DNA of 64,000 bases. It comes from Candidatus Nanopelagicales bacterium. Its GTDB lineage: Bacteria; Actinomycetota; Actinomycetes; S36-B12; GCA-2699445. A model generated the notes under the pieces. It was not told where the DNA came from and ran no database searches. It worked only from the letters and a program-made list of their open reading frames with translations. How positions within the stretch are numbered: position 1 is the first letter of the stretch; each line of letters starts with the position of its first letter. The stretch spans positions 239,071 to 303,070 of the forward strand of contig JBAOHO010000012.1 in the NCBI GenBank assembly GCA_037045355.1, given 5' to 3'. This document shows, in pieces, positions 1,149 to 60,942 of the stretch. A program made the translations under genes and the position numbers.

Positions 1149-1322
1149 AGGAACTCCTTGAGTTGCCGATGCCTTCGATCATGCCAATCCGCGCATTTCG
1201 GCGCCCCTGACATCGAGCTGCTCCTGCGGGATCCGCGCGAAAGTCGGGACCAAGGTCCCGGTTTAGTTCTCATCCGACGGCATTTCTGCTGCGGATTCCG
1301 AAGCAGTGGAGCGTGGGTGCGC

Positions 1323-1700
1323 TCAGGTCCCGGATGCCCGCGACAGCAGGTTGGCGAGCAGGCTCTCGGCTGAGTTCGGGTCGATCTGACGGGGATCGAA
1401 ACTGAAGTCGTGTTCGGTGCGCAGGTGATAGAACGCGCGCAACTCGGTCGATTCGATGACCTCGTCGATCCGGGCATGGCGCACGGCTTCCTGCTCGCTG
1501 ACCCCGGCAGCCAGGTCGGCGAGAGCTGCGGCGTCGATGTCCAGGAATCCGACGGACAGGATCTCGCGGTCATCCGTCAGTGAGAGCGCGTTGAAGACGC
1601 GGGCCGGAACCCCGAATCCCTGGTCGGCCTCCCACGCAGCGATGAAGTCGTCGAATGATGCGCCTTCTTTCAAACGTCGCCTGAACACGGCTACCAGCAT
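1323..1700 (-). CDS. small conserved hypothetical protein (125 aa), possibly a dimeric alpha/beta-barrel fold
   Basis: Internal ATG 1700 of ORF 1323..2141, preceded by aggagg. The product MLVAVFRRRLKEGASFDDFIAAWEADQGFG... looks protein-like, whereas the upstream 147 aa of the ORF is Arg/Pro-rich noise. Confidence 0.55.
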   Translation of the reverse strand: MLVAVFRRRLKEGASFDDFIAAWEADQGFGVPARVFNALSLTDDREILSVGFLDIDAAALADLAAGVSEQEAVRHARIDEVIESTELRAFYHLRTEHDFSFDPRQIDPNSAESLLANLLSRASGT

Positions 1701-1983
1701 CGTTACCTCCTGGCGCTCCTCGGGTTCCCGCCGCTCGGGTGCGGGTCCTGTCGCTCCCAGGGTCCCTGAACCGCTGGGACCTGACTGCATCCTGACCGCC
1801 AGCCGCGACTGATTCCTGCCGAGCCGCCCTGTCTGAGGGCGGAGCAGTCCTTCCTGAGGGCCGAGCAGCCTCTGAATGACGGTCGAGGAGTCCCTGCCTT
1901 GGGGCGGAGGAGTCCGCCTCCGGCGTTCTCGCCAACCGCTGCTTTTCGCTCCTGGGCTGCCGCGTGTGGAGCATGATGCAGTC

Positions 1984-3216
1984 ATGAAGATCATGACGCG
2001 GGTGATCCCTTGGCTGCTCCTCGTCGCCGGTGTCGCTGTCATCGTGTTCGCCGGTGTCTCCGGGGTGCGCTCTTTCGTCTCAGCGCTCCAGCCGGCCGCC
2101 GAATGGAACTCGCCGGGCACCCAGACGGTGACTCTCGACAAGGGGACGTGGGTCGTCTATCAGGCGGGTGCCATCTCCCCGCGCACCGGGCGTTCGCAAG
2201 AGTGGACGATCGACTGGCAGGACATCACGGTCACCGGACCGTCCGGTCCGGTCGCCACCAGTTGTGTCTACTGTTCCGGCTCGGAGACGCTCGGGGTGGG
2301 CGCAGTGACGTACCGAGGAGTCGTCCGTTTCGCGGCCGAGACTGCGGGTGACTACTCGATCACGACCGAGACCAGCGGCTCCCGCCTGGCCGTCGCCCAG
2401 TCGGCGTTCCGCACTGTGAGCGACACGTTCTCCGCGCTCATGTGGATGGGGGTGGGCGGCCTCTTGATCGCCGCGGGGATGGTGTGGCTCGTCGTCCTGT
2501 TGGTCCAGTACCTGTCGCGTCCCAAAGGCCCCCGCCCCGCGGACGGCCAAGCGGTACCGACCGGCGGCGCATATCCCGCACCCCCGCCGATGGACCCACG
2601 GTTCGCACCACCCACGCCGGTGGGACAACAGGCCTTAGGCGCAGGTACCCCAACCCGGATACCCGCCGCCCGCCGGGCAGCAGCCGACCATTCCATCCGA
2701 GCAATTCCCCAACCCCACCCGGCAATTCCCCAACCCCACCCGGCAATTCCCCAACCCCACCCGGGAGCACCGGACTACCGTCCGAGGGCGCCGTGCCCCC
2801 ATCCGATCCCACGGCTTCATCGCCCACCCCTGGCCCCGGCAGTGCGCCCGATTCGCCTCCCCCCGGCAATCGAAGTTCCTGACGGCGAATCAGAGCAGTT
2901 CGTCGGCAGCCACGGGGGACGAGTCCCGCAGGAAGTCCGCGCACCTTTGCGCTTCGGCGGTTTCGCCGATAGCGGCAGCCGCGAGACTCAGTTCGGCGAG
3001 GCAGAGAAGGAATCCCCGATTCGGTTCGTGCTCCCACGGGATCGGCCCATGGCCCCGCCAGCCGTTGCGGCGCAAGGCGTCGAGACCGCGGTGGTAGCCG
3101 ACCCGCGCGAAGGCGTACCACTCCAGCGACGCATCCGTTTCGCGAGCGGCCGCCGCCAGTGCCGCCCAAGCGGCACCCGATTCAGGATGAAGTCGCGCTG
3201 CGTCAGTGGCCGGTAG
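1984..3216 (+). CDS. membrane-anchored protein with Pro-rich C-terminal tail; 3' end unresolved (last ~330 nt is probably antisense shadow of 2890..3300)
   Basis: ATG 1984 gives MKIMTRVIPWLLLVAGVAVIVFAG (TM). A second TM, MWMGVGGLLIAAGMVWLVVLLV, is followed by a Pro-rich tail. Rare codons (tta, ata) appear in this frame after ~2625. An alternative frame stops at 2882, just before the convergent gene. Confidence 0.5.
   Translation: MKIMTRVIPWLLLVAGVAVIVFAGVSGVRSFVSALQPAAEWNSPGTQTVTLDKGTWVVYQAGAISPRTGRSQEWTIDWQDITVTGPSGPVATSCVYCSGSETLGVGAVTYRGVVRFAAETAGDYSITTETSGSRLAVAQSAFRTVSDTFSALMWMGVGGLLIAAGMVWLVVLLVQYLSRPKGPRPADGQAVPTGGAYPAPPPMDPRFAPPTPVGQQALGAGTPTRIPAARRAAADHSIRAIPQPHPAIPQPHPAIPQPHPGAPDYRPRAPCPHPIPRLHRPPLAPAVRPIRLPPAIEVPDGESEQFVGSHGGRVPQEVRAPLRFGGFADSGSRETQFGEAEKESPIRFVLPRDRPMAPPAVAAQGVETAVVADPREGVPLQRRIRFASGRRQCRPSGTRFRMKSRCVSGR
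2701..2763 (+). repeat. 3 x 21-bp perfect tandem repeat (gcaattccccaaccccacccg) in the Pro-rich tail region
   Basis: Read directly. It encodes AIPQPHP, QFPNPTR or NSPTPPG depending on frame. Confidence 0.95.
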
Positions 3217-3300
3217 ACCCTGAGCCAGCTCATCGGTCGCCGGGTCAGGGGGGAGCAAGGTCGGTTCTGGGCCACCGAGCAGGTCGGGATGATTCGTCAT
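2890..3300 (-). CDS. conserved actinobacterial protein, DUF3151-like
   Basis: 136-aa ORF MTNHPDLLGGPEPTLLPPDP...WYAFARVGYHRGLDALRRNGWRGHGPIPWEHEPNRGFLLCLAEL. The family assignment is from memory of this motif pattern. Confidence 0.65.
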   Translation of the reverse strand: MTNHPDLLGGPEPTLLPPDPATDELAQGLPATDAARLHPESGAAWAALAAAARETDASLEWYAFARVGYHRGLDALRRNGWRGHGPIPWEHEPNRGFLLCLAELSLAAAAIGETAEAQRCADFLRDSSPVAADELL

Positions 3301-3319
3301 GCCGACATGATGCCGCGGG

Positions 3320-4619
3320 TCAGCCGCCGCCGATGGATTCGAAGAGCTTCAGTGCCCGGGGAGTGTCCCACTTGACGGCCTGTTGCCCGTTTACCCAATA
3401 CGAATCCGACTCGATAGGCACAGCGGTCTGTTCGCCGAGCCCAGCGGAGATGAGCGCCATCGCGAAAGCCATTCGACCGTCCGCCACGACACCGGTGCCA
3501 TCGTCCACGGTCAGTGAAGACGCAGCCGCCCGGTCGACAGAGAACATCTTGAAAGGATTGAGGAAGGTGAGCGGGTTGGCGGTCTTGGCGGCGACCGCCT
3601 TGACGTACTCTTGCTGGCGCTCCGCGCGCCCGATGTCCCCCTTGGGGTCGGCGTACCGCATCCGGACATAGGCCAGAGCCGTCGGGCCGTCCATGACCTG
3701 GCAGCCCTTCTTCACGTCCAGTCCGGAGTTCTCGTCGTCGTAGTTGGCTGCGGGGCACATGGTCACGCCGCCCAGGGAGTCGGCGATGTCAGCCACCCCG
3801 AGCATGCCGATCTCGACATAGTGGTCGATGTGGACTCCGGTGGTGTTCTCGACGGTCTGGATCAGCAGTTGGGGACCGCCGAGGGCGTAGGCGGAGTTGA
3901 TCTTGCCCTCACCGTTGCCGGGTATCGGAACCCACGAGTCCCGCGGGATCGAGATGAGCGTGGGCGTGCCCAGGTTGGGGACGTGCAGCAGCATGATGGT
4001 GTCGGTGCGTTGACCGTCCGTGCTGCCGGTGTGAAGTTGCCGCTGTTGCTGCTTGGTGAGTTCCTCGCGGCCGTCGGACCCCACCAATAGGTAGTTGGAT
4101 CCCGCGGTATCCGCGATCTGGTCTGCGGGCATCGCGTTGATCTTGTTGACGTTCAACGCGAAGAAACCGACCAGGGCCACCACGTATACGAGTAGCGCGA
4201 CCAGAACGTAGAGCAGGATGCGCTTCGCTCGGCTGCGTCCGGATCGAGGCGGCCGCGCCGGACCACCGGGAGGGTCGAGCCGGACGGGTGGTAGGTGGCA
4301 CCCGACCCGGGGGTGTGGGCGGAGGCAGCACGGCGGTTGCCCCGGGATCAGGTCGCGGAGTCGGCGCTGTCACTGCGTGTGGATCGGGAGTTGATCCGTG
4401 CTGCACGGACGCGCGGGAGGACGGCGGGGGTGGTGTGTGGGGCGGGGTTTGCGGCGGCGGTGGGTCGCGGAACAGATCCGAGAAGTCCGAGAGCGCGGTG
4501 TCGCTGACCGTGTCATGGCGGGCCACCTGGCCCGCGCCCGGCGCCTGAGGGGTCGCTTCCGGACGCATGAATTGCTCGTACTCGGGCGGAACCGCGTTGG
4601 GGCGATCCGGCTCATTCAT
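3320..4619 (-). pseudogene. LytR-CpsA-Psr (LCP) family cell-wall glycopolymer ligase; N-terminal tail and TM/LCP domain lie in different frames
   Basis: ORF 3320..4183 has the LCP core (NYLLVGSDGRE...RTDTIMLLHVP...LISIPRDSWVPIPG...KINSAYALGGP). Its first canonical start (GTG 4183) falls inside the TM helix RILLYVLVALLVYVVALVGFF. That frame is closed by TGA 4372-4370. The Pro-rich cytoplasmic N-terminus MNEPDRPNAVPPEYEQF... (ATG 4619) is in another frame. Confidence 0.75.
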
Positions 4620-4883
4620 GGGTCAAGTGTGCCCCGGACCCCCGTCCCAAACACCCGTCCGCTCGACCGTGACCCGCTTGATACCTGGTGCCTGGGGCAG
4701 ACCGAGGACTCGGACAGGGGTGTCGTTGGAGCGTGCGGGCTCCTCAATCGCACCGGGGATGTTCGTTGGCGAGGGGATCGGCGGCCTAGTGGTGGTGTCA
4801 GTGAGATCACTGTCGGATCACGATTGCGCTGCATTCGAGTGACGGCGCTACGGAAGCCAGGGCCCCGCAGCCGATGCTCAAGC

Positions 4884-6515
4884 ATGGGGTTGTGGTCGTC
4901 GGGCGGGGTCTGTGTGTCCGCGGCATTGTCGGCTGCCCTGATCTTGGTATCGGCTGTTGGTCCTGCCAGCGCCGAAACCGCCTCCCCGTTCGAACCAGCC
5001 GTCACACAATCGGCAGTTGCTGCTCCTCTCGCGTCGGGGGAAGTTCCCGCTGCGCCGAGCGAGGTCCTCGCCGTGCCGAGCGAGGTCCTGGCCGTGCCTG
5101 GGGAGGTTCCCGCCGTGCCGGGGGAGAGGGGGGGTGAACCGTCCCCGAGCGCCCTCGATGAGGTTGCCGCTGGCGTTGCAGGCGGAGAGAAGATGCGACT
5201 GGTCGTCGTTCGGGCAGGTGCAGACGGTCCGGAGGTGACGACGCAACGGGTGGCCGACACGAACGACGCCCGGGGCATCGTCGCGGAGTTGGACGCTGAC
5301 GCGAATCTGCTGGCGGTCGGCGTCGATCAGCGCGTGCACACCGTCGGGACGACCGACCCGATGCGCGCCGACCAATGGGGTCTGACGGCGCTGGACGTCG
5401 AGACAGCGTGGCCGCTGGCGACCGGACGGGGCGTCACAGTCGCGGTTCTGGATTCCGGCGTGGACGCAAGCCACCCAGATCTCGCCGGGGCCCTGGTCCC
5501 CGGAACCAGCACTCGCGGCGGAGACCGATCAGCGCCCGACACCGACCCGAACGGCCATGGCACCCACGTGGCCGGGGTCATCGCCGCCCGAGCGAACAAC
5601 GGGCTGGGGGTGGCAGGAGTCGCCCCCGAGGCATCGATCATGCCGGTGAAAGTATTGGGCAGCGATGGCAGCGGCTGGCTGAGCGACGTCACCGAAGGCA
5701 TCGTCTGGGCCACCGATCACGGTGCCACTGTGATCAACCTCAGCCTGGGTGGCCCGGACGCAAGCGTCATGGCGCCGGCCGTGGAATATGCGCAGCGGCG
5801 TGGTGTCACAGTGGTTGCGGCAGCCGGCAACGACGCCAGCGCCGAGGCCTCGTACCCCGCGGCTCTGCCCGGCGTGGTGTCGGTGGCCGCCATCGGACAA
5901 CGCCTGGATCCGGCGCCGTTCTCCAACCGTGGTGAGACCATCGACTTCGCCGCTCCGGGTTCCGGGGTCCTGTCCACTGTCCCCGGTGGCTACGAGTCGA
6001 TGAGTGGCACGTCCATGGCCGCCCCCCACGTCTCCGGGGTCGTGGCGCTGGTCCGCTCCATCGCGCCTGGGGTGGATCCGGTCGCGATGCTGCAGGCAGG
6101 TGCTACTGATCTCGGTGCGCCGGGGCGTGACGACCGCTACGGCGACGGCGCGATCAACGCCGCCCGGTCGGTGGCGTCAGCGTGCCCCACATGCTCCGCC
6201 CCAGCTGATCCGGAGTCGGTGCCGCAGCGGGACGCCCCGGCGACCCCCGCCACGAAGAAGCAGTCGTTGAACAACAGCGTGAAACGCCTGCGCGTCGGCC
6301 GCACCGCCCTGCTTCCCAACCGGACTGATCAAGGACTGCCGATCCGGTCCTGGGACAACGTGACCCCCAGAACCTGTCGGTTGCTGCGGCGCGACGACGC
6401 GTTCAGAATCCGTGGACTCCATAGCGGGCGCTGCCGACTCAAGGTGACCGCCGCCGCCGGCTCCGGGTACAGCCCGTTCACGAGCGTGCTGTCGGTGCGG
6501 GTCACGGCCGCCTGA
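4884..6515 (+). CDS. secreted S8 family (subtilisin-like) serine peptidase
   Basis: Asp/His/Ser triad motifs VAVLDSGVD, HGTHVAGVIAA and GTSMAAPHVSG. The signal-like N-terminus MGLWSSGGVCVSAALSAALILVSAVGPASA starts at in-frame ATG 4884 of ORF 4398..6515. Confidence 0.88.
   Translation: MGLWSSGGVCVSAALSAALILVSAVGPASAETASPFEPAVTQSAVAAPLASGEVPAAPSEVLAVPSEVLAVPGEVPAVPGERGGEPSPSALDEVAAGVAGGEKMRLVVVRAGADGPEVTTQRVADTNDARGIVAELDADANLLAVGVDQRVHTVGTTDPMRADQWGLTALDVETAWPLATGRGVTVAVLDSGVDASHPDLAGALVPGTSTRGGDRSAPDTDPNGHGTHVAGVIAARANNGLGVAGVAPEASIMPVKVLGSDGSGWLSDVTEGIVWATDHGATVINLSLGGPDASVMAPAVEYAQRRGVTVVAAAGNDASAEASYPAALPGVVSVAAIGQRLDPAPFSNRGETIDFAAPGSGVLSTVPGGYESMSGTSMAAPHVSGVVALVRSIAPGVDPVAMLQAGATDLGAPGRDDRYGDGAINAARSVASACPTCSAPADPESVPQRDAPATPATKKQSLNNSVKRLRVGRTALLPNRTDQGLPIRSWDNVTPRTCRLLRRDDAFRIRGLHSGRCRLKVTAAAGSGYSPFTSVLSVRVTAA
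5040..5123 (+). repeat. 4 x 21-bp imperfect in-frame repeat (EVPAAPS/EVLAVPS/EVLAVPG/EVPAVPG) in the S8 propeptide region
   Basis: Read directly from the sequence. Confidence 0.85.
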
Positions 6516-6563
6516 TCACTGGTCGTATACGCTCCCAGAAACCCCGAGGGGCTGGGAGGCCGC

Positions 6564-7139
6564 ATGCTGTTGTCGGATCGGGACATCCGCGCCGAGGTGG
6601 CCGATGGCCGAGTCGCGATCGACCCCTTCAGCGAGGACATGATCCAGCCCTCCAGTGTCGATGTCCGGCTCGACAAGTACTTCCGGGTGTTCGAGAACCA
6701 CCGGTATCCCCACATCGATCCGGCAGAGGAACAGCCCGACCTGACCCGGCTCGTCGAAGCGGAAGCGGAAGAGCCCTTCATCCTGCATCCGGGCGAGTTT
6801 GTGCTCGCCTCGACGCTGGAAGTGGTCACCCTCCCCGACGATGTGGCAGGCCGGCTGGAGGGCAAGTCGAGTCTTGGCAGACTCGGCCTTCTGACCCATT
6901 CGACCGCAGGGTTCATCGACCCCGGTTTCAGTGGACACGTGACGCTCGAACTGTCGAATGTCGCCACCCTGCCGATCAAACTGTGGCCCGGAATGAAGAT
7001 CGGGCAACTGTGCCTGTTCCGCTTGTCGTCTCCCGCTGATCACCCGTATGGCTCACAGAGGTACGGATCGCGGTATCAGGGTCAACGTGGCCCGACACCC
7101 AGCCGTTCCCATCTGAATTTCCATCGCACGCCGGTCTGA
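6564..7139 (+). CDS. dcd: dCTP deaminase
   Basis: 191 aa: [12 protein letters not shown]...[11 protein letters not shown]...[35 protein letters not shown]...[14 protein letters not shown]. This is a typical Dcd sequence. Confidence 0.93.
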
Positions 7140-7281
7140 TCTGACGGCCGACACGACCGTCGGGCGCCTGTGCCCGGCACTGTCGCGGTACTACGATCGT
7201 GGAATCCGCCGTCCCGGCCTGGGTCGTTGTGGATGCGTAAGGATTCGGCGCCCGGCTGGTCCCAGATGCGAAGGAAGCCCC

Positions 7282-8268
7282 ATGAGCGACAGCGCCCCCC
7301 CTCCCGGCCCCCCGCCGCCCCCCGGCGGCGGCACACCTCCACCTCCCCCCGGCGGTGGGACCCCTCCTCCGCCTCCCGGCGGCGGGACACCTCCTCCGCC
7401 TCCCGGCGGTGGGACCCCTCCTCCGCCGCCCGGCGGCGGCACACCCCCACCTCCTCCGGGGGCCACTCCTCCTCCGCCCCCTTCGGGTTTCGGCGGCGGA
7501 GCCGCCCCCCCGCCCCCACCCGGTGGCGGTCAGCCCGGCGGGTTCCAAGCGGAAGCCAGTCGCTACTCCGTCAGTGACGCGTTCAACTACGGCTGGAAGA
7601 AGTTCCAGGAGAATCTCGGACCCTGGATCCTCGGACTGTTGATCCTGGGCTTGATCGTCATCGCGATCCAGTTCGTCTACCAGACGGTGATCGCTCGCCT
7701 GATCATCGGATCGACCGAGGCCACGATCGATCCGGTCACCGGTGAACTCGTGTTCACCAACAGCGGCTTCATCCCAGGGGGCTTCTTCGGCAGCCTCCTC
7801 GCCACGTTGGTGCTGATGATCCCCATCATCATTCTCGGCGTCATCGTCTCCGCGCAGTTCGTGCGTGGTGGCCTGGCGACGGCGACGGAGGGCAAGATCT
7901 CCCTCGGCAAGTTCTTCGAGATGCGCCTGATCGGCACCATCATCGTGGCGGGCCTGATCGTCGCCGTTCTCACGGCGGTGGGCGTTCTCGCCTGCTACAT
8001 CGGGGCGATCATCGTCTCGTTCTTCGTCCAGTTCTACGCGTACTACGTGCTCGATCGGGACGAGTCGGCCTGGCAGGCGGTGAAGTCGAGTTTCTCGTTC
8101 GTCAACCAGAACCTCGCGAACATCATCGTGCTGTTCCTGGCGAGCATGCTGGCGGTTCTCATCGGCGCGCTGCTGTGTGGCATCGGGCTGCTGGTGGCGT
8201 ACCCGGTTGTTCTCATCGCTCACGCCTACACCTTCCGCGTGCTGAACAACGAGCCCGTGGCGGCGTAG
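7282..8268 (+). CDS. polytopic membrane protein with Pro/Gly-rich repeat N-terminus (paralog 1)
   Basis: ATG 7282 follows gaagga. Five PGGGTPPPP repeats precede a ~210-aa multi-TM domain, YSVSDAFNYGWKKFQENLGPWIL...AHAYTFRVLNNEPVAA. Confidence 0.8.
   Translation: MSDSAPPPGPPPPPGGGTPPPPPGGGTPPPPPGGGTPPPPPGGGTPPPPPGGGTPPPPPGATPPPPPSGFGGGAAPPPPPGGGQPGGFQAEASRYSVSDAFNYGWKKFQENLGPWILGLLILGLIVIAIQFVYQTVIARLIIGSTEATIDPVTGELVFTNSGFIPGGFFGSLLATLVLMIPIIILGVIVSAQFVRGGLATATEGKISLGKFFEMRLIGTIIVAGLIVAVLTAVGVLACYIGAIIVSFFVQFYAYYVLDRDESAWQAVKSSFSFVNQNLANIIVLFLASMLAVLIGALLCGIGLLVAYPVVLIAHAYTFRVLNNEPVAA
7321..7455 (+). repeat. 5 x 27-bp in-frame tandem repeat encoding PGGGTPPPP
   Basis: Read directly. Copies differ mainly at synonymous positions. 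Confidence 0.9.
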
Positions 8269-8334
8269 GCAGGTAACCGCGACGGGCTCGTGCTGCAAGC
8301 AGGCGCAACCGTCGCGGATAGTCGGCCAGTAGCG

Positions 8335-8372
8335 ACAGCCCCCGGAGCGTGGTCTCCGGGGGCTGTTCGCTG
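8335..8372 (+). terminator. GC-rich hairpin terminator after paralog 1
   Basis: ACAGCCCCCGGAG / loop cgtggt / CTCCGGGGGCTGT (13-bp perfect stem), followed by a T-containing tail tcgctgttcg. Confidence 0.55.
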
Positions 8373-8465
8373 TTCGACACTTCACATCACGGTGATGGGT
8401 CCACGGATTCCGCAGAGTTCACTGCTACGTTCGACAGGTCCGAGAACTCATCCTGTTGGAGCGAT

Positions 8466-9443
8466 ATGAGCGACAGCACCCCTCCCCCCGGCCCCCCACC
8501 TCCTCCCGGCGGCGGTACCCCACCTCCCCCGCCATCCGGTGGAACTCCGCCTCCTCCCCCCGGCGGTGGTATCCCACCAACTCCGCCCCCTCCTCCCGGC
8601 GGCACTCCTCCTCCCGGCGGGGCAGCACCGCCTCCACCGCCCTCAGGGTTCGGAGGTGGGGCCCCGCCGCCTCCGCCTGCCGGCGGCCATCCCGGCGGGT
8701 TCCAGCCTGAGACGAGCCGATACTCCGTCAGTGACGCGTTCAACTACGGCTGGACGAAGTTCCAGCAGAACCTGGGTCCGTGGATCCTCGCGTGCTTGAT
8801 CGCACTGGTGGTGCCCGTCGTGCTCAGCATCGTGTACTTCGTATTGCTGATCCCGATCGTTTCGGCCAACACCGTTCCGATCGAGACCCAGTCCGGGACG
8901 ATCACGTACACGACAAACACGGCAGGCGGCATCGGCCTGACGATCATCACGCTGCTGTTCGCTGTGGCCTTCGCACTACTGGGGTGGATCATCACGGCTC
9001 AGTTCGTTCGCGGTGCCCTGGCGAATGTGACGAACGGAAAGATCGAACTCGGCATCTTCTTCAAGTGGCAGTTCATCGGTGTGATCATCCTGGCGTCACT
9101 GATTCTCGCCGTGATCCAGCTGGTGCTGGGGATCATTGGGATCGTTCCCATCATCGGATGGATCGTTCAGTTCATCGGATCGATCATCGTGGCGTTCTTC
9201 GCGCAGTTCTACGCGTACTTCGTGTTGGATCGCCAGCAGCGCGCCTGGGAATCGATCAAGTCGAGCTTCGCCTTTGTGAACCAGAACTTGGCGAACATCA
9301 TCATCTTGTTCCTCGCGAGCATGGTGGCGCTGTTCATCGGGGCGATCCTGTGTGGCATCGGACTGTTCGTGGCCATCCCGGTCACGATCATCGCCCACGC
9401 CTACACGTTCCGGGTACTGAACCGCGAGCCCGTAGCGGCCTGA
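8466..9443 (+). CDS. polytopic membrane protein with Pro/Gly-rich N-terminus (paralog 2)
   Basis: In-frame ATG 8466 (MSDSTPPPGPPPPPGGGTPPPPP...) of ORF 8349..9443. The membrane domain closely parallels 7282..8268 (YSVSDAFNYGWTKFQQNLGPWIL...AHAYTFRVLNREPVAA). Confidence 0.8.
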   Translation: MSDSTPPPGPPPPPGGGTPPPPPSGGTPPPPPGGGIPPTPPPPPGGTPPPGGAAPPPPPSGFGGGAPPPPPAGGHPGGFQPETSRYSVSDAFNYGWTKFQQNLGPWILACLIALVVPVVLSIVYFVLLIPIVSANTVPIETQSGTITYTTNTAGGIGLTIITLLFAVAFALLGWIITAQFVRGALANVTNGKIELGIFFKWQFIGVIILASLILAVIQLVLGIIGIVPIIGWIVQFIGSIIVAFFAQFYAYFVLDRQQRAWESIKSSFAFVNQNLANIIILFLASMVALFIGAILCGIGLFVAIPVTIIAHAYTFRVLNREPVAA

Positions 9444-9454
9444 GAGCGATCACC

Positions 9455-9497
9455 GAGGTGTGGCCCCCAGCGTTCGGCTGGGGGCCACACCTCTTTC
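9455..9497 (+). terminator. rho-independent-type terminator after paralog 2
   Basis: GAGGTGTGGCCCCCA / loop gcgttcggc / TGGGGGCCACACCTC (15-bp perfect stem), followed by tttcc. Confidence 0.65.
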
Positions 9498-9575
9498 CGG
9501 CGATCCTCCCGCGATTCTCCGGCGATCCTTCCGCGATTCTCCGGCGATCGGGCTCCGGCGATCGTTCGGTCGGGC
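9497..9575. repeat. intergenic tandem repeat, ~22-bp unit ccggcGATCct(c/t)ccgcgattct, 2 full plus 2 truncated copies, one GATC per copy
   Basis: Read directly. GATC at 9502, 9524, 9546 and 9560. Confidence 0.9.
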
Positions 9576-9578
9576 GCT

Positions 9579-9677
9579 GACGACCGTTCGTGTCGGTTCC
9601 CCGAGGACGTTCGTGTCCGTTCCCCGAGGACGTTCGTGTCCGTTCCCCGAGGACGTTCGTGTCCGTTCCCCGAGGAG
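9579..9677 (+). repeat. intergenic/leader tandem repeat, 23-bp unit gaggacgttcgtgtccgttcccc, ~4.3 copies; each unit has GAGGA-N5-GTG
   Basis: Units at 9603-9625, 9626-9648 and 9649-9671. A degenerate copy lies at 9579-9602 and a partial gaggag at 9672-9677. Confidence 0.92.
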
Positions 9678-9684
9678 TAGTCCG

Positions 9685-10185
9685 TTGACTGCTGGTCCGG
9701 GTTACGGTGGACGCGTGCAGACCGAGCAGACCTTGAGCACCCGACGTGCCCTGCTGATGGGCGGTGGTGCCGTCGCAGCCGCGGGAGTGCTCCTCTGGGT
9801 GCCTGATCTGCTGGGCGTTTCGGTTCTTCCCGCCTGTCCTTTCCGCCTGATGACGGGGTGGGACTGTCCCTTCTGCGGCGGGACGCGAGCGACTCGGGCT
9901 CTGGTGACCGGTGATCTGTCGACTGCAGCCGACTTCAACGTCCTGGTCCCGGTCATGGCGCTGGCCGGCGTCGTTGTCGCCGCTTGGTGGCTGCTGGCTC
10001 AGCGAGCAGGCCCGAGTGTCGCCGGGTCCAGCCCGCAAGACGGACGCAGGGCCTCGGTGTCCTTCGAACCCGTCAGGTCAGTGCTCGGCGCCAGGGTTTT
10101 CTGGTTCGTCGTGTTGGCTGTTTTTCTGGTCTTCTGGGTGTTGCGCAACCTGCCGGCGTTCTCGTACTTGAACTCAACTGGTTGA
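9685..10185 (+). CDS. DUF2752-like membrane protein (CPF..TGWDCPFCGGTRA motif); start uncertain (TTG 9685, or in-frame GTG 9613 or GTG 9715)
   Basis: ORF 9460..10185. Motif LPACPFRLMTGWDCPFCGGTRATRAL plus 3-4 TM segments. TTG 9685 has gaggag 7 nt upstream. Confidence 0.65.
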   Translation: MTAGPGYGGRVQTEQTLSTRRALLMGGGAVAAAGVLLWVPDLLGVSVLPACPFRLMTGWDCPFCGGTRATRALVTGDLSTAADFNVLVPVMALAGVVVAAWWLLAQRAGPSVAGSSPQDGRRASVSFEPVRSVLGARVFWFVVLAVFLVFWVLRNLPAFSYLNSTG

Positions 10186-10220
10186 GGTCCTGAGCGGTCG
10201 CAGTTTCCCCGCTGGCCAGG

Positions 10221-13200
10221 TCAACTGGTCAGACGTACCGAGTCGCTCACCAACCGTTGGTGCGGGGCTTGCGCAGGCAGTACCGCGCGGTACCGTCCCG
10301 CGGGCTGGTTGATCACGACGGTGTCCGCCTTGCCTCGAGTCTTGGTGGTGGTCACGGTGCGCCAGCCGTTCCCCGTCTGCTTCTGGATCTGGACGCGGTA
10401 GTCCGCCTTCTTCTTGTCGGGATTGACATTGACCTTGATCCGGGAGGCACCGGCGTACTGGCGGGTGGCTTGCCCGGTCGAGTCGCCGACGGCCTCGGCT
10501 GTCACCAGTGCCGGCTGGAACGGGTAGGTGCCCCAAGTCTTGTCGACCTTGCCGTCGCTGTAGATCAGTTCGTTGTAGGGATACAGCCCCCACTGCACGC
10601 AGTCGGGATTGGTCGGATACTTCGTGCTGAGCCCGGATCCGGTCTTCTTGAACTGGAAGCCGCAGCCCGTCTGGCTCAGAGAGTTGATGTCGATCGACCC
10701 CAGCGACGGTGGTGGGTTCAGTGTCGGTTGACCACCAGGTGGTGTGGGCTTGGACGGCATCATCAGCGCCGGATCGCCGCCGGTCAGGTAGAACTTCTCA
10801 TCAGTGGGATCAATGGCCGGCGGGATCTTGCACTTCAAAGGCGTGAGAACGCTGCAACCCTCTCCCCAGTCGAGACGCGGGAACACGTACCACGTCTGGA
10901 TGTCGTTCTGGAACGGGTTCTTGGCGCTGTGAGTCTTCTGCTTGTCGCCACAGTCGCTGGGCAGCCCATTGCCGGTGAACCTGTCGTTGGTGAACTCCAA
11001 CAAGGACCCGCCCACCAGTTGTGGCTGCGCTGTCTTGCCGCCCACATCGTCGGTGAACGGGAAGGTGAGCACGTTCAGGTGATCCGCCGCCTGGAAGGCG
11101 GAGTTCACCTGCGGGTTGGGGTTCGCGATACCCGTCGCCACCGGCGTCCAGTAGGCGGCCATGTCCGCCCCGCCGGCGCAGAACGACTCCTGGAACGCAG
11201 CGTTCGCCTGTGACAGCACGATCTGATCGGCGGTACCTGACGCCATCAGCAAGGGCATGTCCTTCGGGAAGGAGTTCGACTTCCCCTGCTGGATGGTTGG
11301 TGTCATCTTGGCGAAGATCTTGCTCCAGTTGTAGAAGGCCTCCTGATTGGCAGGATCGTTCGGGTCCTTCATGAACGGGGTTCCCGGAGCACTGGCCCCG
11401 TTGGGGTAGAACTCGGCACTCGCCGCGAACGCCTGCGTGGTGCAGTAGTCGAAGTACTTGAGTGCATTGGCCATGCCCGCTTGCGACAGCACATTGTTCT
11501 TCAGCGCCCAGCCGCCGAGGTAGCCGGCCCAGGTCTGGATCACCTCGGGGCCGAGGACCCAGTTGGCTTGCTGGTTCCACAACGTGTTGACGAGCTGGTT
11601 GATGTCGGTGGCGGGTGCGACGGCCATCACGCCCAGGAGGCGTTGCGCCGTTCTCTTGTACAGATCGTCGGCCTTGATCCCCGACCACAGAGCAGCGTGA
11701 CCGCCCTGGCTGTGACCCATGACCACGAACCGGTTGCCGGCCTGCGGAACTCCGGGCCAGCCGCGGCCCGCCTTGCGGTCCGTGTGCAGGGCCTCGACGG
11801 CGAAGAACACGTCCCGGGCCTCCTGGGGGCCCACGATGTAGGTCTTCTGGTTCCCCGTGGGTCCGTTCACGGCGATTCCCAAGTAGTCGGGCATGACGAC
11901 GATGTAGCCCTTGGCGAGCATCTGGTCCAGGAAGAAGATCATGTCCGTGACGTTGATCTCCATACCTCCGGGTCCGGTGCCACCGCCGGGCATCGGGATC
12001 CGCTCGGTGCCGCGGGACACCGAGCACTGATCCGACTGCCCGAGAGTCGGGTGCGCCCAGGCGACGATCGGAGCGTCGTTGGCAACGTTGGGGGGCACCA
12101 TCAGGAGTGCTGTCGCAGCCTCCGGTGGTCCTTTCACGGAGCCGTCGCCGGTGCTGTCTGGAACCCACCGCTCGGTGGTGTACATGACCCGGTACTGGCG
12201 CCCGGGAATCTTGCAGTCGGACTGGGGGATGGCCGGATCCGTCACACAGGTCGGTGGGCCGGCAGCGGGGTTGCCGATCGGGGGCAGGATGAGCGGACCC
12301 TTGGACTTGTCGATCGGATTGGGGAGCGCGAGCTTCGGGTAGTTCATCGGGAACTCTTGCGCCTTGACCATCACTCCGGGCTGGTCCGGCAGGTTCACGG
12401 GCACGTTGTAGAGGGCATCGCCGGCGTCGCTGAACGCGATGTCGACGGGAGTGGACTGCACATCGCTGCTGTCCACCACCACGCGAAGCCTCGCAGTGCC
12501 GTCGTCGGGGACGCTCAACTGGGCAGTTCCGTTGCCCTTGTCGTTGGTCCGGGTGGCGCTGCCGGGAAGGTCATCCCACCCGGAGTCCCGCTTGCGCTGA
12601 ATATGGACCGCGACCGACTTGTTCGGGTCGACATTGACTGCGACGTCGTACTTGCGGTCCACCTGCAACGGTGAACCTGAGGGCCAGGTGGCTGCGACGG
12701 AGTTCACCTTCGGGTCCGGTTGAGGATTGGGACCAGGGCCGGGATCGGGGCCAGGACCGGGGTTGGGGTCGGGGTCGGGGTTCGGACCCGGGCCTGGCCC
12801 AGGTGTGGGGTCACGCCGGACCGTGATGTCCAGCGTTGCGCTCTTCTGTTTGCCGCTCGTCACCCGCAGGCGGTTGTCGCCGACCTTGGTGAGCTTCGTC
12901 GACAGCGTGGCCTTGCCCTTCTTGCTGGTCGACTTCTTCTGGACCAGGCGCCACTTCTTGCTGTCCGGTTTGCGCAGCTTCAAGGCGACCGGCGCCTTCT
13001 TCTTCGGCTTCACCCACGTGGTCACCTTGACGGTCCCGCCGTCCTTGACCTTGCTCTTGTTGGCCTTGGCCGTGACCTTCTTGACCCTGGCTTTCGCCTG
13101 AATCTGCCTCACCGCTTGTTCCTGGTTCCCAGCGGCCGCTTTCTGGGTCATGAGCTCATGGATCGCCGCCACCGGATCGGTGCTGCTGGTGGGCGCCGGT

Positions 13201-13325
13201 GCGGCCCCCGCCGGCACTCGCGCTGCCGGCACGATCAGCAGTGACGCGACGGTTCCCGTGATCAGCGTTCGCAACATCGACAACCCCAGACTCCTGGCGG
13301 ACAACACCAGAAGTGTGCTCACCAC
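10221..13325 (-). CDS. large secreted LIP-family (secretory lipase-like) alpha/beta hydrolase with N-terminal Ig-like/Pro-rich regions
   Basis: 1034-aa ORF. Signal-like MLRTLITGTVASLLIVPAARVPAGA (alternative start ATG 13277), a PGPGPNPDPDP linker, the nucleophile elbow VVMGHSQGGHAALW, and YIVVMPDYLGIAVNG. Confidence 0.75.
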   Translation of the reverse strand: MVSTLLVLSARSLGLSMLRTLITGTVASLLIVPAARVPAGAAPAPTSSTDPVAAIHELMTQKAAAGNQEQAVRQIQAKARVKKVTAKANKSKVKDGGTVKVTTWVKPKKKAPVALKLRKPDSKKWRLVQKKSTSKKGKATLSTKLTKVGDNRLRVTSGKQKSATLDITVRRDPTPGPGPGPNPDPDPNPGPGPDPGPGPNPQPDPKVNSVAATWPSGSPLQVDRKYDVAVNVDPNKSVAVHIQRKRDSGWDDLPGSATRTNDKGNGTAQLSVPDDGTARLRVVVDSSDVQSTPVDIAFSDAGDALYNVPVNLPDQPGVMVKAQEFPMNYPKLALPNPIDKSKGPLILPPIGNPAAGPPTCVTDPAIPQSDCKIPGRQYRVMYTTERWVPDSTGDGSVKGPPEAATALLMVPPNVANDAPIVAWAHPTLGQSDQCSVSRGTERIPMPGGGTGPGGMEINVTDMIFFLDQMLAKGYIVVMPDYLGIAVNGPTGNQKTYIVGPQEARDVFFAVEALHTDRKAGRGWPGVPQAGNRFVVMGHSQGGHAALWSGIKADDLYKRTAQRLLGVMAVAPATDINQLVNTLWNQQANWVLGPEVIQTWAGYLGGWALKNNVLSQAGMANALKYFDYCTTQAFAASAEFYPNGASAPGTPFMKDPNDPANQEAFYNWSKIFAKMTPTIQQGKSNSFPKDMPLLMASGTADQIVLSQANAAFQESFCAGGADMAAYWTPVATGIANPNPQVNSAFQAADHLNVLTFPFTDDVGGKTAQPQLVGGSLLEFTNDRFTGNGLPSDCGDKQKTHSAKNPFQNDIQTWYVFPRLDWGEGCSVLTPLKCKIPPAIDPTDEKFYLTGGDPALMMPSKPTPPGGQPTLNPPPSLGSIDINSLSQTGCGFQFKKTGSGLSTKYPTNPDCVQWGLYPYNELIYSDGKVDKTWGTYPFQPALVTAEAVGDSTGQATRQYAGASRIKVNVNPDKKKADYRVQIQKQTGNGWRTVTTTKTRGKADTVVINQPAGRYRAVLPAQAPHQRLVSDSVRLTS

Positions 13326-13445
13326 CTGAGGCGGTGTCTCGCCGAGCGGTGGATCGCGTCAGTTCGTCGTGGACGCCGCCAGCGGCTGAGTGCCCCCGGA
13401 ACGACTTGCACTCACGATGACAGAAGAGGGACGCAGCGGTCGGAC

Positions 13446-15674
13446 TCAGCGTTTGACGGAGTCGAGCATCAACGAGGCCAGGTCGACGACTTCGACGTCC
13501 TCCGCCGCCCCTTCTTGCTGGCGCACGGTCACCCCGTCGTTGAGCATGACCGAACAGAACGGGCAGGCCACTGCGACCTTGGTCGCCCCCGTCCCGATGG
13601 CTTCGTCGGCGCGGTTCTGATTGACCCTCGTGCCGAGGGTCTCCTCCATCCACATGCGCGCACCCCCGGCGCCGCAGCAGAACGATTTCTCACCCGAGCG
13701 CTCCATCTCGACGAGGCTCGCGCCGGGCAGTGACTCCAGCAACGCCCGCGGCGGTGTGTACACCTGGTTGTGACGCCCCAGGTAGCACGGGTCGTGATAG
13801 GTCACGGTGTCGTCCACGCGGTTCACCGGCACCAACTTGTTCTCGTAGACCAGGGCGTGCAGCAGCTGCGAGTAGTGCACGACCTCGTAGTTGCCACCGA
13901 ACTCGGGGTACTCGCGGCCCAATGTGTTGAGACAGTGAGGGCAGGTGACGACGATCTTCTTGGCACCGACCTCGTTGAGGACCTCGATGTTCTGCACCGC
14001 TTGCATGTAGAACAGGGGCTCGTTGCCGGCGCGGCGGGCAGCGTCACCGGTGCAGGACTCCCCGTCGCCGAGCACCATGAACTCGACACCCGCTGTGTGG
14101 AGCAACTCGGCGACTGCCTTGGTCGTCTCCTTGGCGCGGTCCTCGTAGGCACCGGCGCAGCCGACCCAGAACAGGTACTCGACATCGTCGGGGATCGTGT
14201 CCTCGCCGTCGGCTCCGAACACTCGAACCGGGAAGTCGACCTCGTCGATCCAGGCGTTACGCACATTGGCGTTCATGCCCCACGGGTTGCCCTTGTTCTC
14301 GAGGTTCTTGAACAGGCCATTGAGTTCGGAGGGGAACTCCGTCTGGATCATCACCTGGTGGCGGCGCATGTCCACGAAGTGGTCGATGTGCTCGATATCC
14401 ACCGGGCACTGGTTCACACACGCGCCACACGTGGTGCACGACCACAGTGCGTCGGTGTCGATGACTGGTCCTTCATGGGAACGGTGCCCGGCGGCGTCGT
14501 AGCCGTCGGTCGCGCGTAGTGGATCGAAGTCGCGAGGTCCGACCAACTCGCGCTGGGCTTCGTTCTGGACGTTCTCCGGCATCCTGGCCAGGACGTCCTC
14601 GTCGATCTCGCCGAGTTCCGGGTTCTTGCCGTCGTTGGCTTTCTGCGCCGCCAGCACGTAGGGCGCTTTAGTGAACGCGTGATCACGCAGATTCATGATC
14701 ATGAGCTTGGGTGACAGCGGCTTCTCCGTGTTCCACGCCGGGCACTGGGACTGGCACCGGCCGCACTCAGTGCACGTGGCCATGTCCAGCAGGCCTTTCC
14801 AGGTGAAGTCCTCAACTCGGCCCACGCCGTAGGTGGCGTCGTCGGGCGGATCCTCGAGGTCGAGGCGTTGCCCGTCGGAGTACATCGGGAGAAGCGGCCC
14901 CAGGGCGTCAGGCCGCCGTGAGGCGCCCACGTTGATCGGGGCAGTGAAGATGTGCAGATGTTTGCTGTTGAGCACGATCAACAGGAACGCGAGGATGACA
15001 CCGACGTGCAGCCACAGACCGATGGTCTCGAGCCATGCGTTGGTGACCGCACCCAGGGGGGCGAGCAGTGATGCGACCGCCTGCGAGACGAAGGCCCCGG
15101 TCATGCCGGCCGCCGCGGCGTCCCCCGCGTAGTCCTCGATGTTGATTTTCGCGCCGCGGTAGAGAGCCAGCGTGAGGATGACCAGCAGGATCATCCCCAG
15201 GACCAGCCAGGCGCCCGAGGTGTGGGAACCGTAGAAGCGGGACCAGCGACCGCGTTCCTTGGGCTGGTTGCGCAGCCGGATGATGAGGAAGATCACGACA
15301 CCCACGAAGACGAGCAGGATGAACAGGTCCTCGAGGAAGCGGATCACGGGCCAGGTACCGATGAACGGGAACGCGAATCCGTGGATGAAGAGTTCGAAGA
15401 CGGCCTCGACAACGGTGATGCCGAGGATCAGGAAGCCGGCGAACACGAAGACATGGGCGATGCCGGGGACCGTCCACTTGAGTAGCTTCTTCTGTCCGAG
15501 AACCTCGGTCGCCTCGGCTTCGAGCCGGGTCGGGACCTCGCTGGTACGTCCGACCGCGGGCTGACCGGAGCGGATCAGGCTGGTCAGGAACCAAGCACGT
15601 TTGGCGGCGAAGATGGCCGCAACGACGATGATGACGATTCCGATGCCGGCCCTCAGCGCCAACGACGGTTCCAT
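13446..15674 (-). CDS. membrane-bound (Fe-S)-binding / CCG-domain reductase (heterodisulfide-reductase-like, Rv0338c type)
   Basis: ATG 15674 follows gggagggg. N-terminal TM domain, two 4Fe-4S motifs (CTECGRCQSQCP, CTTCGACVNQCP), and CCG-like motifs (WVGCAGAY, VVTCPHCLNTL, CCGAGG, VACPFC). The upstream 148 aa of ORF 13446..16118 is noise-like. Confidence 0.85.
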   Translation of the reverse strand: MEPSLALRAGIGIVIIVVAAIFAAKRAWFLTSLIRSGQPAVGRTSEVPTRLEAEATEVLGQKKLLKWTVPGIAHVFVFAGFLILGITVVEAVFELFIHGFAFPFIGTWPVIRFLEDLFILLVFVGVVIFLIIRLRNQPKERGRWSRFYGSHTSGAWLVLGMILLVILTLALYRGAKINIEDYAGDAAAAGMTGAFVSQAVASLLAPLGAVTNAWLETIGLWLHVGVILAFLLIVLNSKHLHIFTAPINVGASRRPDALGPLLPMYSDGQRLDLEDPPDDATYGVGRVEDFTWKGLLDMATCTECGRCQSQCPAWNTEKPLSPKLMIMNLRDHAFTKAPYVLAAQKANDGKNPELGEIDEDVLARMPENVQNEAQRELVGPRDFDPLRATDGYDAAGHRSHEGPVIDTDALWSCTTCGACVNQCPVDIEHIDHFVDMRRHQVMIQTEFPSELNGLFKNLENKGNPWGMNANVRNAWIDEVDFPVRVFGADGEDTIPDDVEYLFWVGCAGAYEDRAKETTKAVAELLHTAGVEFMVLGDGESCTGDAARRAGNEPLFYMQAVQNIEVLNEVGAKKIVVTCPHCLNTLGREYPEFGGNYEVVHYSQLLHALVYENKLVPVNRVDDTVTYHDPCYLGRHNQVYTPPRALLESLPGASLVEMERSGEKSFCCGAGGARMWMEETLGTRVNQNRADEAIGTGATKVAVACPFCSVMLNDGVTVRQQEGAAEDVEVVDLASLMLDSVKR

Positions 15675-15856
15675 GACCCCTCCCAGGAGTTCGGGGGCGG
15701 GCCCGCGGCGGTATCGATGTGGGTCCAGCCGCGCTGCACACCCGCTCTCGATCCTACCGGCCGGTAACTTCACCTGGGCAGCGCACGCCTTGTGACGTTG
15801 GGCACCGGACGGTGACGGTGGCACCGGGTTTCTCGCCTGCGCCATCACCGTCTCGA

Positions 15857-15930
15857 CCGAAGCCGACCCGAAGCCGACCCGAAGCCGACCCGAAGCCGAC
15901 CCGAAGTCGACCCGAGGTCGACCCGACCGA
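15857..15930. repeat. ~6 x 12-bp tandem repeat (ccgaagccgacc) in a divergent promoter region
   Basis: Read directly: four perfect copies, then ccgaagtcgacc and cgaggtcgaccc variants. Confidence 0.9.
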
Positions 15931-16034
15931 TCCGGGTGCCTACGAACGAAGCCGCCGCGACAAGCCCGGTGAGCGAATGCTTCGATGACAGTGGTTCCAT
16001 GAAGGTGTACGCCTATTGCATCGGAGGCCGGCGC

Positions 16035-17379
16035 GTGTCTCGTCGTTTCTTCACCTTGTCTGCTGTTCCGGTCGCCGCGTTGGCGTTGATGGCCGGCGTC
16101 ATGCAGGTCCCTGCCCAATCAGCTCCGGCTCTTCCCGCAGCGGATGACTCGGCCCTCGCGCCACCGACCATCGTCGGTTTGGGCGACTCGTACATGTCGG
16201 GTGAGGGTGTCATGTACGCCAACAAGAACTTCTCGTCGTCGAAGCGCAGCGGCGACTGGTCGATGTGGCAGACGGCCGCGGGAGCCATCGGCGGCGATAT
16301 CGGAACACCCGACGACCCCACGGCGGTGGGCAACAGATGGCTGTCGGTCTTCGGAGATGCCACCGGGTACAAGCCGTACCCGCCGAATTCGAACCGCGAG
16401 TCCATTCCGTTGTGCGATCGCAGTTATGCAGCCGCGATGCACATCGGACGCGGCTGGCTGTCGGAGAATCTCGCTTGCTCCGGGGCGATCCTGACCACCG
16501 TTCCCAAGACCAAAGAAGGGCTCTTCAAGCCGGGCATCGACTTCGCGGATCTGGTGAATCCGGCGCCCTATGTACCGGTCGGCCAGGGTCAGGCCCTCAT
16601 GCTCCAGGAATACGCCACAGACAACCGCAACGTTGACGTCGTGGCCCTGTCGATCGGCGGCAACGACTTCGGATTCGGGGCGTTGGCCAAGGTCTGTGTC
16701 ACGGATTTCTTGAAGCCGTGGCCATTCCGGCAGAAGTGCTCGAGCGATCCAGATGCGGCCAAGATCGTGAAGGAGGGCATCCCCAAGGCGAAGGCAGCCG
16801 TCAAGGCCTCCGTCGAGAACGTCACCAAGGCCATGGACCGCGCCGGATACGACCAGACCGCGTGGAAGCTCGTTTACCAAAAGCCACCACTTCCCATCGG
16901 CACTGCCGCCCAGACCTACCCCTACTCCGAATCCGGCTACAGCCGGCAGGACATCGGGGGATGCCCGTTCTACGACGCCGATCTGGACTGGATCGTCAAG
17001 GACGTGTATCCCGATCTTGTGGACGCGATGAGGGACGGCTTGAAACAAGCGAAGTCATCGCTCGGCGAGACCCAAGTAGTGATCCTGGACACGACCGACA
17101 CCTTCAAGCGCCACAAACTGTGCGGCAAGGACACCATCGGTGCCTTGAACTACTCCACCGGCCAGGCCGGGATGGAGCCGAAGTGGCAGGACGACAACGG
17201 CATCAAGACGGAGTGGGTGACCCCCATCAAGCTGTTCGGCGGTGCGATCGGCGGCAACCTCTACCAGCAGCAGATGCCGCTGCACCCCAACTTCTGGGGT
17301 CAGCGCGCACTGTCCGACTGCATGGACCTGGCGAGACGTGTCGCACCTCGATCAGGCCTCGCCGGAGGATCACAGCTGA
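16035..17379 (+). CDS. secreted SGNH/GDSL hydrolase; C-terminus reconstructed across a probable 1-nt frameshift near 17334 (the raw ORF runs on to 17642)
   Basis: GTG 16035 follows ggagg. Signal VSRRFFTLSAVPVAALALMAGVMQVPAQSAP, the GLGDSYMSGEG block, and a C-terminal LHPNFWGQ block. After 17334 the raw frame uses rare codons, while the +1 frame is GC3-rich and stops at TGA 17377-17379. Confidence 0.75.
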
Positions 17380-20092: not shown

Positions 20093-20346
20093 GCGTTCCC
20101 CGATCGATCACCCCCGGCAGGCACACCGGTGGCTTGATCCTTGCGCCATCCTCGGGGTGGCACAAGCGAGTTGCGGCTGAGTTCGAACCGGGTAGAGCAG
20201 ATTTCAGCCGGGCTATCACTCTGCTCACACAACGAGTCACCCTGCGTATTTGTTGCCTCCCAGAATGCCCCGATGTCGGCGCTTCCGGGCAGGAGTTACC
20301 CGGACTCACGGGCATAGCGACCCGGCCGCGGCCCGCGGGTAGTGTG

Positions 20347-20403
20347 CAACAGGGGCCCGATGGGGCAACAGGGGCCCGATGGAGCAACAGGGGCCCGATG
20401 GGG
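20347..20403 (+). repeat. 3 x 19-bp tandem repeat (caacaggggcccgatgg[g/a]g), each unit carrying GGGG-N4-ATG, immediately 5' of the CDS at 20411
   Basis: ATGs at 20360, 20379 and 20398 fall in three different frames. Confidence 0.92.
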
Positions 20404-28222: not shown

Positions 28223-28386
28223 GGCCCTCCAGTACGGAGTGGAATGCGCTCACCGCGCCATATCCGGCGGGGTGAGCAGTCCGGCTGGCGGGAACGCCGC
28301 ACAAGCCGCGTGATGGCGCGAGATGGCGTGAGATGGCGCGAAGTGCTCGGCAGGGGTGTGGTCGATCCCGTTCAGCCGGCTGAGAC

Positions 28387-60938: not shown

Positions 60939-60942
60939 CCCG

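Follow-up and report, generated by a model that had tools for sequence, protein, structure and literature searches.

The 64,000-nucleotide stretch of DNA analysed here (the window) carries a gene for a DUF2752 protein that is preceded by a tandem array of 23-bp units, and the question raised by this locus is whether the array switches the expression of the gene or is a product of repeat mutation with no part in it. An earlier note on this DNA had suggested a slipped-strand or uORF translational switch, on the ground that each unit would carry a Shine-Dalgarno (SD) sequence followed by GTG in a period that is not a multiple of 3. The observations collected below favour a different reading, namely that the array is probably a young, slippage-generated VNTR lodged in the spacer that runs from a 3′ hairpin to a conserved leaderless promoter, and that its SD and GTG combination is incidental.

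Tandem Repeats Finder (TRF) resolves the array as 4.0 copies of the unit CGTTCGTGTCCGTTCCCCGAGGA at 9585-9676 (98% matches, score 177), with the single mismatch among the four copies located in the first. A pattern search that allowed at most one mismatch returned 4 matches in the 64-kb window against 0 in 100 shuffles, and the repeat is far beyond chance; both analyses bear out the description of a 23-bp tandem repeat 5′ of the DUF2752 gene in the earlier note. The same search recovered no further copies outside the array in the 64-kb window, and the exact unit gave 0 matches and no extra alleles in JGI metagenome contigs. With head-to-tail copies of a unit in the range of ~10-100 bp, the array has the general form of a VNTR (minisatellite). 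It is flanked on its 3′ side by a partial, diverged fifth copy, GTAGTCCGTT, recognized by reading the sequence at 9677-9686, and on its 5′ side by a degenerate unit 0, which overlaps a 19-nt insertion specific to the window and appears as a 19-nt deletion relative to the window in other contigs; the aligner sets this gap at ~9550 and its exact span is approximate. The array showed neither a periodic nor an unusually stable RNA fold (z -0.73), an inverted-repeat search found no palindrome or inverted repeat inside it, and Rfam gave no match, with only two chance-level matches at a permissive threshold. The features of the locus and of the wider window are collected in Table 1.

Table 1. Coordinates of features at the DUF2752 locus and elsewhere in the window, with distances counted from the G of GTG 9715 as +1
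Feature	Position	Strand	Relative to GTG 9715	Basis or remark
Upstream gene, proline-rich membrane protein, 325 aa	8466-9443	+		ORF list; stop TGA 9441-9443
Perfect hairpin, 17-bp arms, 5-nt loop, then TTTCC	9455-9493	+	-260 to -222	Inverted-repeat search, fold
First variable array, 11/22-bp units TCCGGCGATCC / TCCCGCGATTC	9496-9564	+	-219 to -151	TRF; 6 GCGATY units in the window
Degenerate unit 0 of the 23-bp repeat, CGTTCGGTCGGGCGCTGACGAC, 22 nt	9563-9584	+		TRF row 9548-9663, period 23
23-bp array	9585-9676	+	-130 to -39 (approximate, from the predicted start)	4 units in the window, 2-4 among strains
GAGGAG (9672-9677), 7 nt, TTG 9685	9672-9687	+		166-aa start in some gene callers
GGTTACGGT with predicted -10 hexamer TACGGT (9703-9708)	9700-9708	+	-12 to -7 (hexamer)	Invariant as GGTTAnnnT in seven species
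DUF2752 CDS	9715-10185	+	+1 (GTG)	GTG 9715, 156 aa + TGA; Pfam DUF2752, E 9e-16
Array	15857-15926			Intergenic, frame-specific GC3 flat
Array	20346-20403			Intergenic, frame-specific GC3 flat
Array	28307-28341			Intergenic, frame-specific GC3 flat
Array	40044-40179			Intergenic, frame-specific GC3 flat
dnaA	57415-58932			Pfam
Arrays in a gap of ~890 bp after dnaA	58999-59101			Intergenic, frame-specific GC3 flat
dnaN	59826-60938			Assigned by position and size only
recF	60943-62073			Pfam
Array	62094-62140			Intergenic, frame-specific GC3 flat
Array	62386-62518			Intergenic, frame-specific GC3 flat
DciA-family gene	62520-63053			Pfam
Array	63045-63191			Intergenic, frame-specific GC3 flat

The start codons within the repeat are as the earlier note described them, with one exception. 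GTG codons stand at 9590, 9613, 9636 and 9659, and the motif GAGGA-N5 precedes the last three, but the first is preceded by GACGAC and lacks GAGGA, and the claim of an SD in every unit holds to that extent only. The frames and short ORFs assigned to GTG 9613, 9636 and 9659 proved correct: the first shares the frame of the DUF2752 ORF, the second opens a 14-codon uORF ending at TAG 9678, and the third opens a 9-codon uORF with a stop (TGA 9686-9688) that overlaps TTG 9685. In addition, GTG 9590 opens a 32-codon ORF in the frame of GTG 9659. When random 23-mers drawn from the window were tandemized, 7.5% placed an SD tetramer 6-17 nt upstream of a start codon, while the strict combination of GAGGA and a start codon arose in 0.75%, such that the occurrence of SD and GTG within the unit is unremarkable under the loose definition and only mildly unusual under the strict one. 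The window holds ~11 arrays with a period that is not a multiple of 3, which on two strands amount to ~22 trials, and none of the other ten yields the combination; with this many opportunities to yield one case, the case observed is not significant.

Public gene calls place the start of the DUF2752 gene at three codons, TTG 9685 (166 aa), GTG 9715 (156 aa) and ATG 9757 (142 aa). On comparative grounds GTG 9715 is most likely the true start. The N-termini of homologues align at this codon or within 3 residues of it, the equivalent GTG is the start of P0002, the protein of the closest relative, and 156-aa forms (P0079, P0081) are called by both the NCBI and JGI callers. The GC3 value is 0.76 from 9715 on, 0.40 for 9685-9714 and 0.53 for 9613-9714, and this last stretch, with its GC3 at non-coding level, bears no coding signature. 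The form called from TTG 9685 (P0001) is found on many wastewater and activated-sludge metagenome contigs; the TTG is not conserved as a start in relatives, and it is probably the repeat-derived GAGGAG that draws RBS-based callers to it. ATG 9757 was rejected as a start since the closest relative has CTG in its place. A literature search on DUF2752 returned no papers.

The start codon of the gene lies in a conserved setting. An alignment of seven species, comprising the window and six relatives (L013, L015, L016, L017, L108 and L111), leaves G26, G27, T28, T29, A30 and T34 invariant within an otherwise unconserved spacer. The start codon of the relatives is found ~46-49 codons before a TGxDCPxC motif and is preceded by GGTTA(C/G)(C/G)(G/C)T; in 7/7 species a TANNNT hexamer ends 6-8 nt before the ATG or GTG, and in 7/7 no SD precedes the conserved start. 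Of the transcription start sites (TSSs) mapped in Mycobacterium smegmatis, 79% have ANNNT at -6 to -13, where the genome background is 9.7%; TANNNT is the stronger of the two forms, and leaderless transcripts make up 24% of the total (PMC6448022). The DUF2752 gene displays the sequence arrangement that defines a leaderless gene, namely TANNNT/ANNNT at -6 to -13, a purine at +1 and no SD, and the conserved spacing of -10 and start codon is the predicted signature of an actinobacterial leaderless mRNA. Transcription would accordingly begin at GTG 9715, downstream of the array, and because of this predicted position the array would lie outside the DUF2752 mRNA. A scan of 9000-10400 for sigma-70 promoter and terminator consensus sequences found nothing, although actinobacterial promoters and U-poor terminators escape such a scan. 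TTGACT (9685-9690) was considered as a -35 element and rejected, as 12 bp from the conserved -10 is too close. Elsewhere in the window, a near copy of the DUF2752 -10 motif, GGTTATGGTGGA, is found at 35291-35302; it contains TATGGT, adjoins a tandem array (35191-35246) near the start of a plus-strand ORF (35250-35810), and may be another leaderless promoter.

With the start placed, the effect of copy number can be followed by reconstruction. Alleles of 1-6 units were rebuilt and the frames of their GTGs and distances to GTG 9715 were compared. Since the array is anchored to the gene on its 3′ side, these distances are independent of the number of units: -56 (the 9-codon uORF), -79 (the 14-codon uORF), -102 (in frame) and -125 (the 32-codon uORF). 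Gain or loss of units only adds or removes distal GTGs, and each GTG that is retained keeps its frame, contrary to the expectation of the earlier note that a change of one unit would alter which start is in frame. The sole feature that depends on copy number is an in-frame GTG with GAGGA upstream, which requires at least 4 units; a 3-unit allele has GACGAC before its in-frame GTG, and a 2-unit allele has no in-frame GTG. Nor would a promoter be disturbed, as the 23-bp array ends at -39, 26 bp before the -10 hexamer and outside the -35/-10 spacer. A shift of frame or of -35/-10 spacing with each unit, the mark of a phase-variable locus, is absent from the 23-bp array.

On its other side, the spacer is bounded by the upstream gene, which is paralogous to the gene at 7282-8268, has a GC3 of 0.79, is called as 325 or 326 aa in near-identical contigs and gave no Pfam match reaching threshold. 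Both paralogues contain in-frame repeats of 27/54 bp that encode PPPPPGGGT (7308-7481 and 8492-8635), and strains differ there by 27 or 54 bp, plus 3 bp at ~8606. The hairpin, which begins 12 nt after the stop codon, recurs in the same place in four species with 7/15 pairs kept through changes on both sides, and was missed by the terminator scan owing to its short T run; from its sequence and position it is a putative terminator or 3′-end hairpin of the upstream gene. A hairpin with compensatory changes after the upstream stop implies that the DUF2752 gene is probably transcribed from a promoter of its own, and its short U run (UUU) also makes read-through from the upstream gene possible, which would place the array in an mRNA.

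Between the hairpin and the 23-bp array lies the 11-bp array, for which per-contig counts range from 3 to at least 8 units in other strains; the related species L013 has a single similar stretch, TCCGCATCGAT. Exact copies of the 11-mer TCCCGCGATYC are also present in two further intergenic regions, one at 62102 and the other at 63054/63095, against an estimated ~0.3 matches by chance, a weak hint of shared repeat seeds. ANNNT is present in every junction of the 23-bp units (GACGTT) and in every 11-bp unit (GATCCT/GATTCT), and the arrays could conceivably contain weak promoters.

Comparison with related species suggests that the arrays are young and lineage-specific. L013/L014, the closest related species, shares its gene order with the window at 62% protein identity, and its spacer consists of the equivalent hairpin and ~50 nt. 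Both arrays are absent from it and from five further species, as is any equivalent of the uORFs, SD or TTG 9685 upstream of DUF2752 in 6/6 related species; a uORF conserved with its gene, as uORF control would lead one to expect, was found in none of L013, L015, L016, L017, L108 and L111. A scan of genome contigs with the DUF2752 alignment returned relatives at 52% identity or less only.

Among close strains, the copy number varies. The comparison set consisted of 17 distinct, near-identical wastewater or activated-sludge metagenome contigs with identical flanks, and contains 4 units in eight contigs (L001, L004, L005, L006, L009, L011, L096 and L099), 3 in six (L002, L003, L007, L008, L012 and L097) and 2 in three (L010, L095 and L101), counts that derive from short-read metagenome assemblies in which repeat miscounts are possible. 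Copy number thus differs between close genomes with conserved flanks, as is typical of VNTRs, and the strain comparison advised by the earlier note has a positive outcome. That note had also held that an invariant copy number together with a TSS downstream of the repeats would tell against a switch; the latter is now predicted from the conserved -10, but the former is not the case. Each of the 2-, 3- and 4-copy states is found with two distinct 11-bp-array haplotypes, and therefore copy-number change has recurred. In a 17-kb comparison, almost all multi-base indels between strains fall in tandem arrays (~1824, 2699, 7363, 8606, 9550, 9596 and 15857), the exception being a small cluster at 4705-4793 where TRF found no array. 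Between 9.6 and 17.3 kb, where the strains have ~0 SNPs, differences persist in the 23-bp array and in the 11-bp array at 15857, from which it follows that the arrays mutate much faster than single bases.

Two further observations came from these alignments. When positions 1-17333 of the window were compared with the long contigs L098-L101, SNP density was 0.5-4% per kb to the left of ~9571 and essentially zero at 9.6-17.3 kb; this step near the VNTR, found in 4/4 of these contigs, could be a recombination boundary or reflect a recent sweep of the segment to its right. Single-base insertions at ~279, 2637, 2699 and 4293, in contexts that are not homopolymers, set the window apart from all other contigs, and the longest window ORF for a LytR_cpsA_psr gene of 432 aa in other contigs is 3320-4369 (350 codons), which suggests frameshifts in the window, either from sequencing errors or as real pseudogenes.

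The locus is not alone in its repeats. In the window, nine or more intergenic regions contain arrays whose period, between 10 and 25 bp, is not a multiple of 3 (9496-9676 and the further arrays of Table 1), and one more such array, at 31089, lies inside ORF 30762-32540, has a GC3 signal that is not flat, and was among the ~11 of the chance test. On the 64-kb window alone, intergenic tandem arrays seem unusually dense for a bacterium, and the presence of short arrays in so many intergenic regions favours a mutational origin over a locus-specific function. The 11-bp array at 15857-15926 occupies a divergent spacer upstream of an Fe-S/CCG oxidoreductase gene and has two units fewer in L101. Several of the others fall within the chromosomal replication origin region (57415-63200), which includes, downstream of dciA at 63045-63191, a dense repeat cluster rich in GATC and in the DnaA-box-like TCGTCCACC.

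Taken together, these features suggest the following course of events. Replication slippage would have produced the 23-bp and 11-bp arrays as young and lineage-specific additions to the non-coding stretch that separates the 3′-end hairpin behind the upstream gene from the DUF2752 promoter. TACGGT (9703-9708) would drive a leaderless DUF2752 mRNA with the G of GTG 9715 as its first base, leaving the 23-bp array at about -39 to -130, outside that mRNA, with its GAGGA-N5-GTG incidental. A change of copy number would then only lengthen or shorten the region upstream of the promoter, and because -35/-10 spacing and frames would be untouched, little effect on expression, if any, is expected. The repeat and its polymorphism are observed, as are its absence from relatives and the conserved hairpin and -10/start arrangement; from these we infer slippage as the mechanism, GTG 9715 as the start of transcription and a lack of function for the array.

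A regulatory role at the level of transcription, the likeliest of the alternatives, is doubtful. The arrays would here serve as direct repeats bound by a regulator upstream of the -35, or as a spacer whose length changes promoter output, and would place DUF2752 transcription under contingency control at the level of the population. The region -39 to -130 is where activators commonly bind, CGTTC recurs every 10 or 13 bp in the array, the arrays vary recurrently, and TCCCGCGATYC is repeated in two other intergenic regions, all of which would suit such a role. Operators would, however, be expected to persist in orthologous promoters, none of which contains the arrays, and the candidate half-sites are not enriched, CGTTC-N5-CGTTC giving 9 matches in the window against 7.7 expected, with 4 of them within the array. 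Furthermore, a period of 23 bp does not stay in phase with the DNA helix, the array offers no palindrome or inverted repeat, and similar arrays of unrelated sequence in many intergenic regions speak of a mutational habit and not of specific operators. PHO-box-like GTTC direct repeats were considered and rejected, given that the spacing of 10/13 bp is off the 11-bp register, the half-site is not enriched and the relatives lack them. It is unlikely that the array belongs to a set of many contingency VNTRs and that its copy number tunes the leaderless DUF2752 promoter and, on read-through transcripts, determines the presence of an SD-led in-frame GTG (with 4 or more units only) and of up to 3 decoy uORFs. 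Were this so, heritable and rapidly reversible expression variants would arise from 23-bp units and not from the usual tracts of 1-8 bp.

A translational role of the kind envisaged in the earlier note is very unlikely. The array would need to lie in a transcribed leader, by read-through of the hairpin or from a promoter upstream, for its SD and GTG units to act as uORFs; the 9-codon uORF, with TGA 9686 over TTG 9685, could then couple translation into the 166-aa form, with at least 4 units GTG 9613 would add an N-terminal extension of 34 residues relative to GTG 9715, and copy number would tune how many decoy or extended starts exist. The presence of GAGGA-N5-GTG in three units, the rarity of the strict combination among random units, the TTGA overlap at 9685 and the weak U tract of the hairpin are in keeping with this proposal, as is GAGGAG-N7-TTG 9685, a good ribosome-binding site that some callers use. 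The variability of copy number, with an SD-led in-frame GTG only at 4 or more units, likewise agrees with it, and the variability is the part of the slipped-strand or uORF proposal that is supported. The switch itself is not supported: frames are left unchanged by gain or loss of units, the conserved leaderless-type -10 is downstream of the array, 6/6 related species are without the uORF, SD and TTG, the GC3 of 9613-9714 is non-coding, the sigma-70 consensus scan gave no promoter upstream, and homologues have no N-terminal extension. Finally, it is highly improbable that the copy-number differences are short-read assembly artefacts of a truly invariant array, for although every comparison sequence is a metagenome contig and several come from SPAdes-type assemblies (by their record names) whose largest k may fall below the perfect repeat length, collapse is unlikely in contigs whose record names imply k127 or k141, k-mers that exceed the 46-92 bp array, and these show both 4 copies (L001, L004 and L099) and 2 copies (L010 and L101), the same alleles are reproduced in contigs of different samples, and the array at 15857 and the in-frame coding repeats also vary in the same contigs.

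If the preferred reading of a slippage-generated VNTR upstream of a leaderless promoter is true, the locus and its neighbours would provide fast-evolving typing markers for an uncultured activated-sludge actinomycete with identical flanks, the practical value of which would be modest, and would matter for gene regulation only if expression changes with copy number. Two further points would follow. A repeat can create a convincing SD and start codon that mislead gene callers, a warning for annotation, and the pairing of GGTTAnnnT with a start codon yields a testable prediction of leaderless DUF2752 mRNA in several uncultured actinobacterial species.

Several known systems invite comparison. The leader peptides that are known to control genes are conserved with their gene and encoded in a mapped leader. 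The present locus resembles them in its SD-led short ORFs upstream of a gene, one of which overlaps a possible start, but these uORFs are by-products of a repeat that is absent from relatives and probably lie upstream of the TSS. Phase-variable tracts of Neisseria, Haemophilus and Bordetella lie within a reading frame or between -35 and -10, so that a change in unit number moves the frame or alters the spacing, and their units are usually of 1-8 bp. The likeness to them, which underlay the mechanism of the earlier note, is that of slipped-strand changes in repeat number beside a gene start, whereas the window array ends 39 bp before the start and no frame or spacer depends on its copy number. 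Leaderless mRNAs of Actinobacteria have been treated by Cortes 2013, Shell 2015 and Martini 2019. The DUF2752 arrangement in all seven species is like that of such mRNAs (PMC6448022), with the qualification that the TSS is here predicted and that the likeness concerns the gene and not the repeat.

A parallel among Actinobacteria is offered by the MIRUs of M. tuberculosis, a dispersed family of ~40-50 loci with units of 40-100 bp (PMC3184786, PMC3635867; summarising Supply et al. 1997) that lie inside operons, are transcribed polycistronically and overlap the flanking genes at both ends (PMC3184786). As with MIRU-VNTRs, the 23-bp array is an actinobacterial intergenic repeat that is polymorphic in very close strains and mutates at a rate far above that of point mutations, and in both the short ORFs within the repeat may end over the start of the following gene, here TGA 9686 with TTG 9685. 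In contrast, the unit of the window is 23 bp and unique to its locus, and neither its size nor its distribution is that of the dispersed family. The array follows a conserved hairpin and precedes a conserved promoter, with the hairpin and 141 nt between it and the upstream stop, which it does not overlap; the overlap is confined to the 3′ side, at a TTG that is not a conserved start. Neither a MIRU nor a classical phase-variation tract, the locus is a bacterial intergenic VNTR of a well-known kind.
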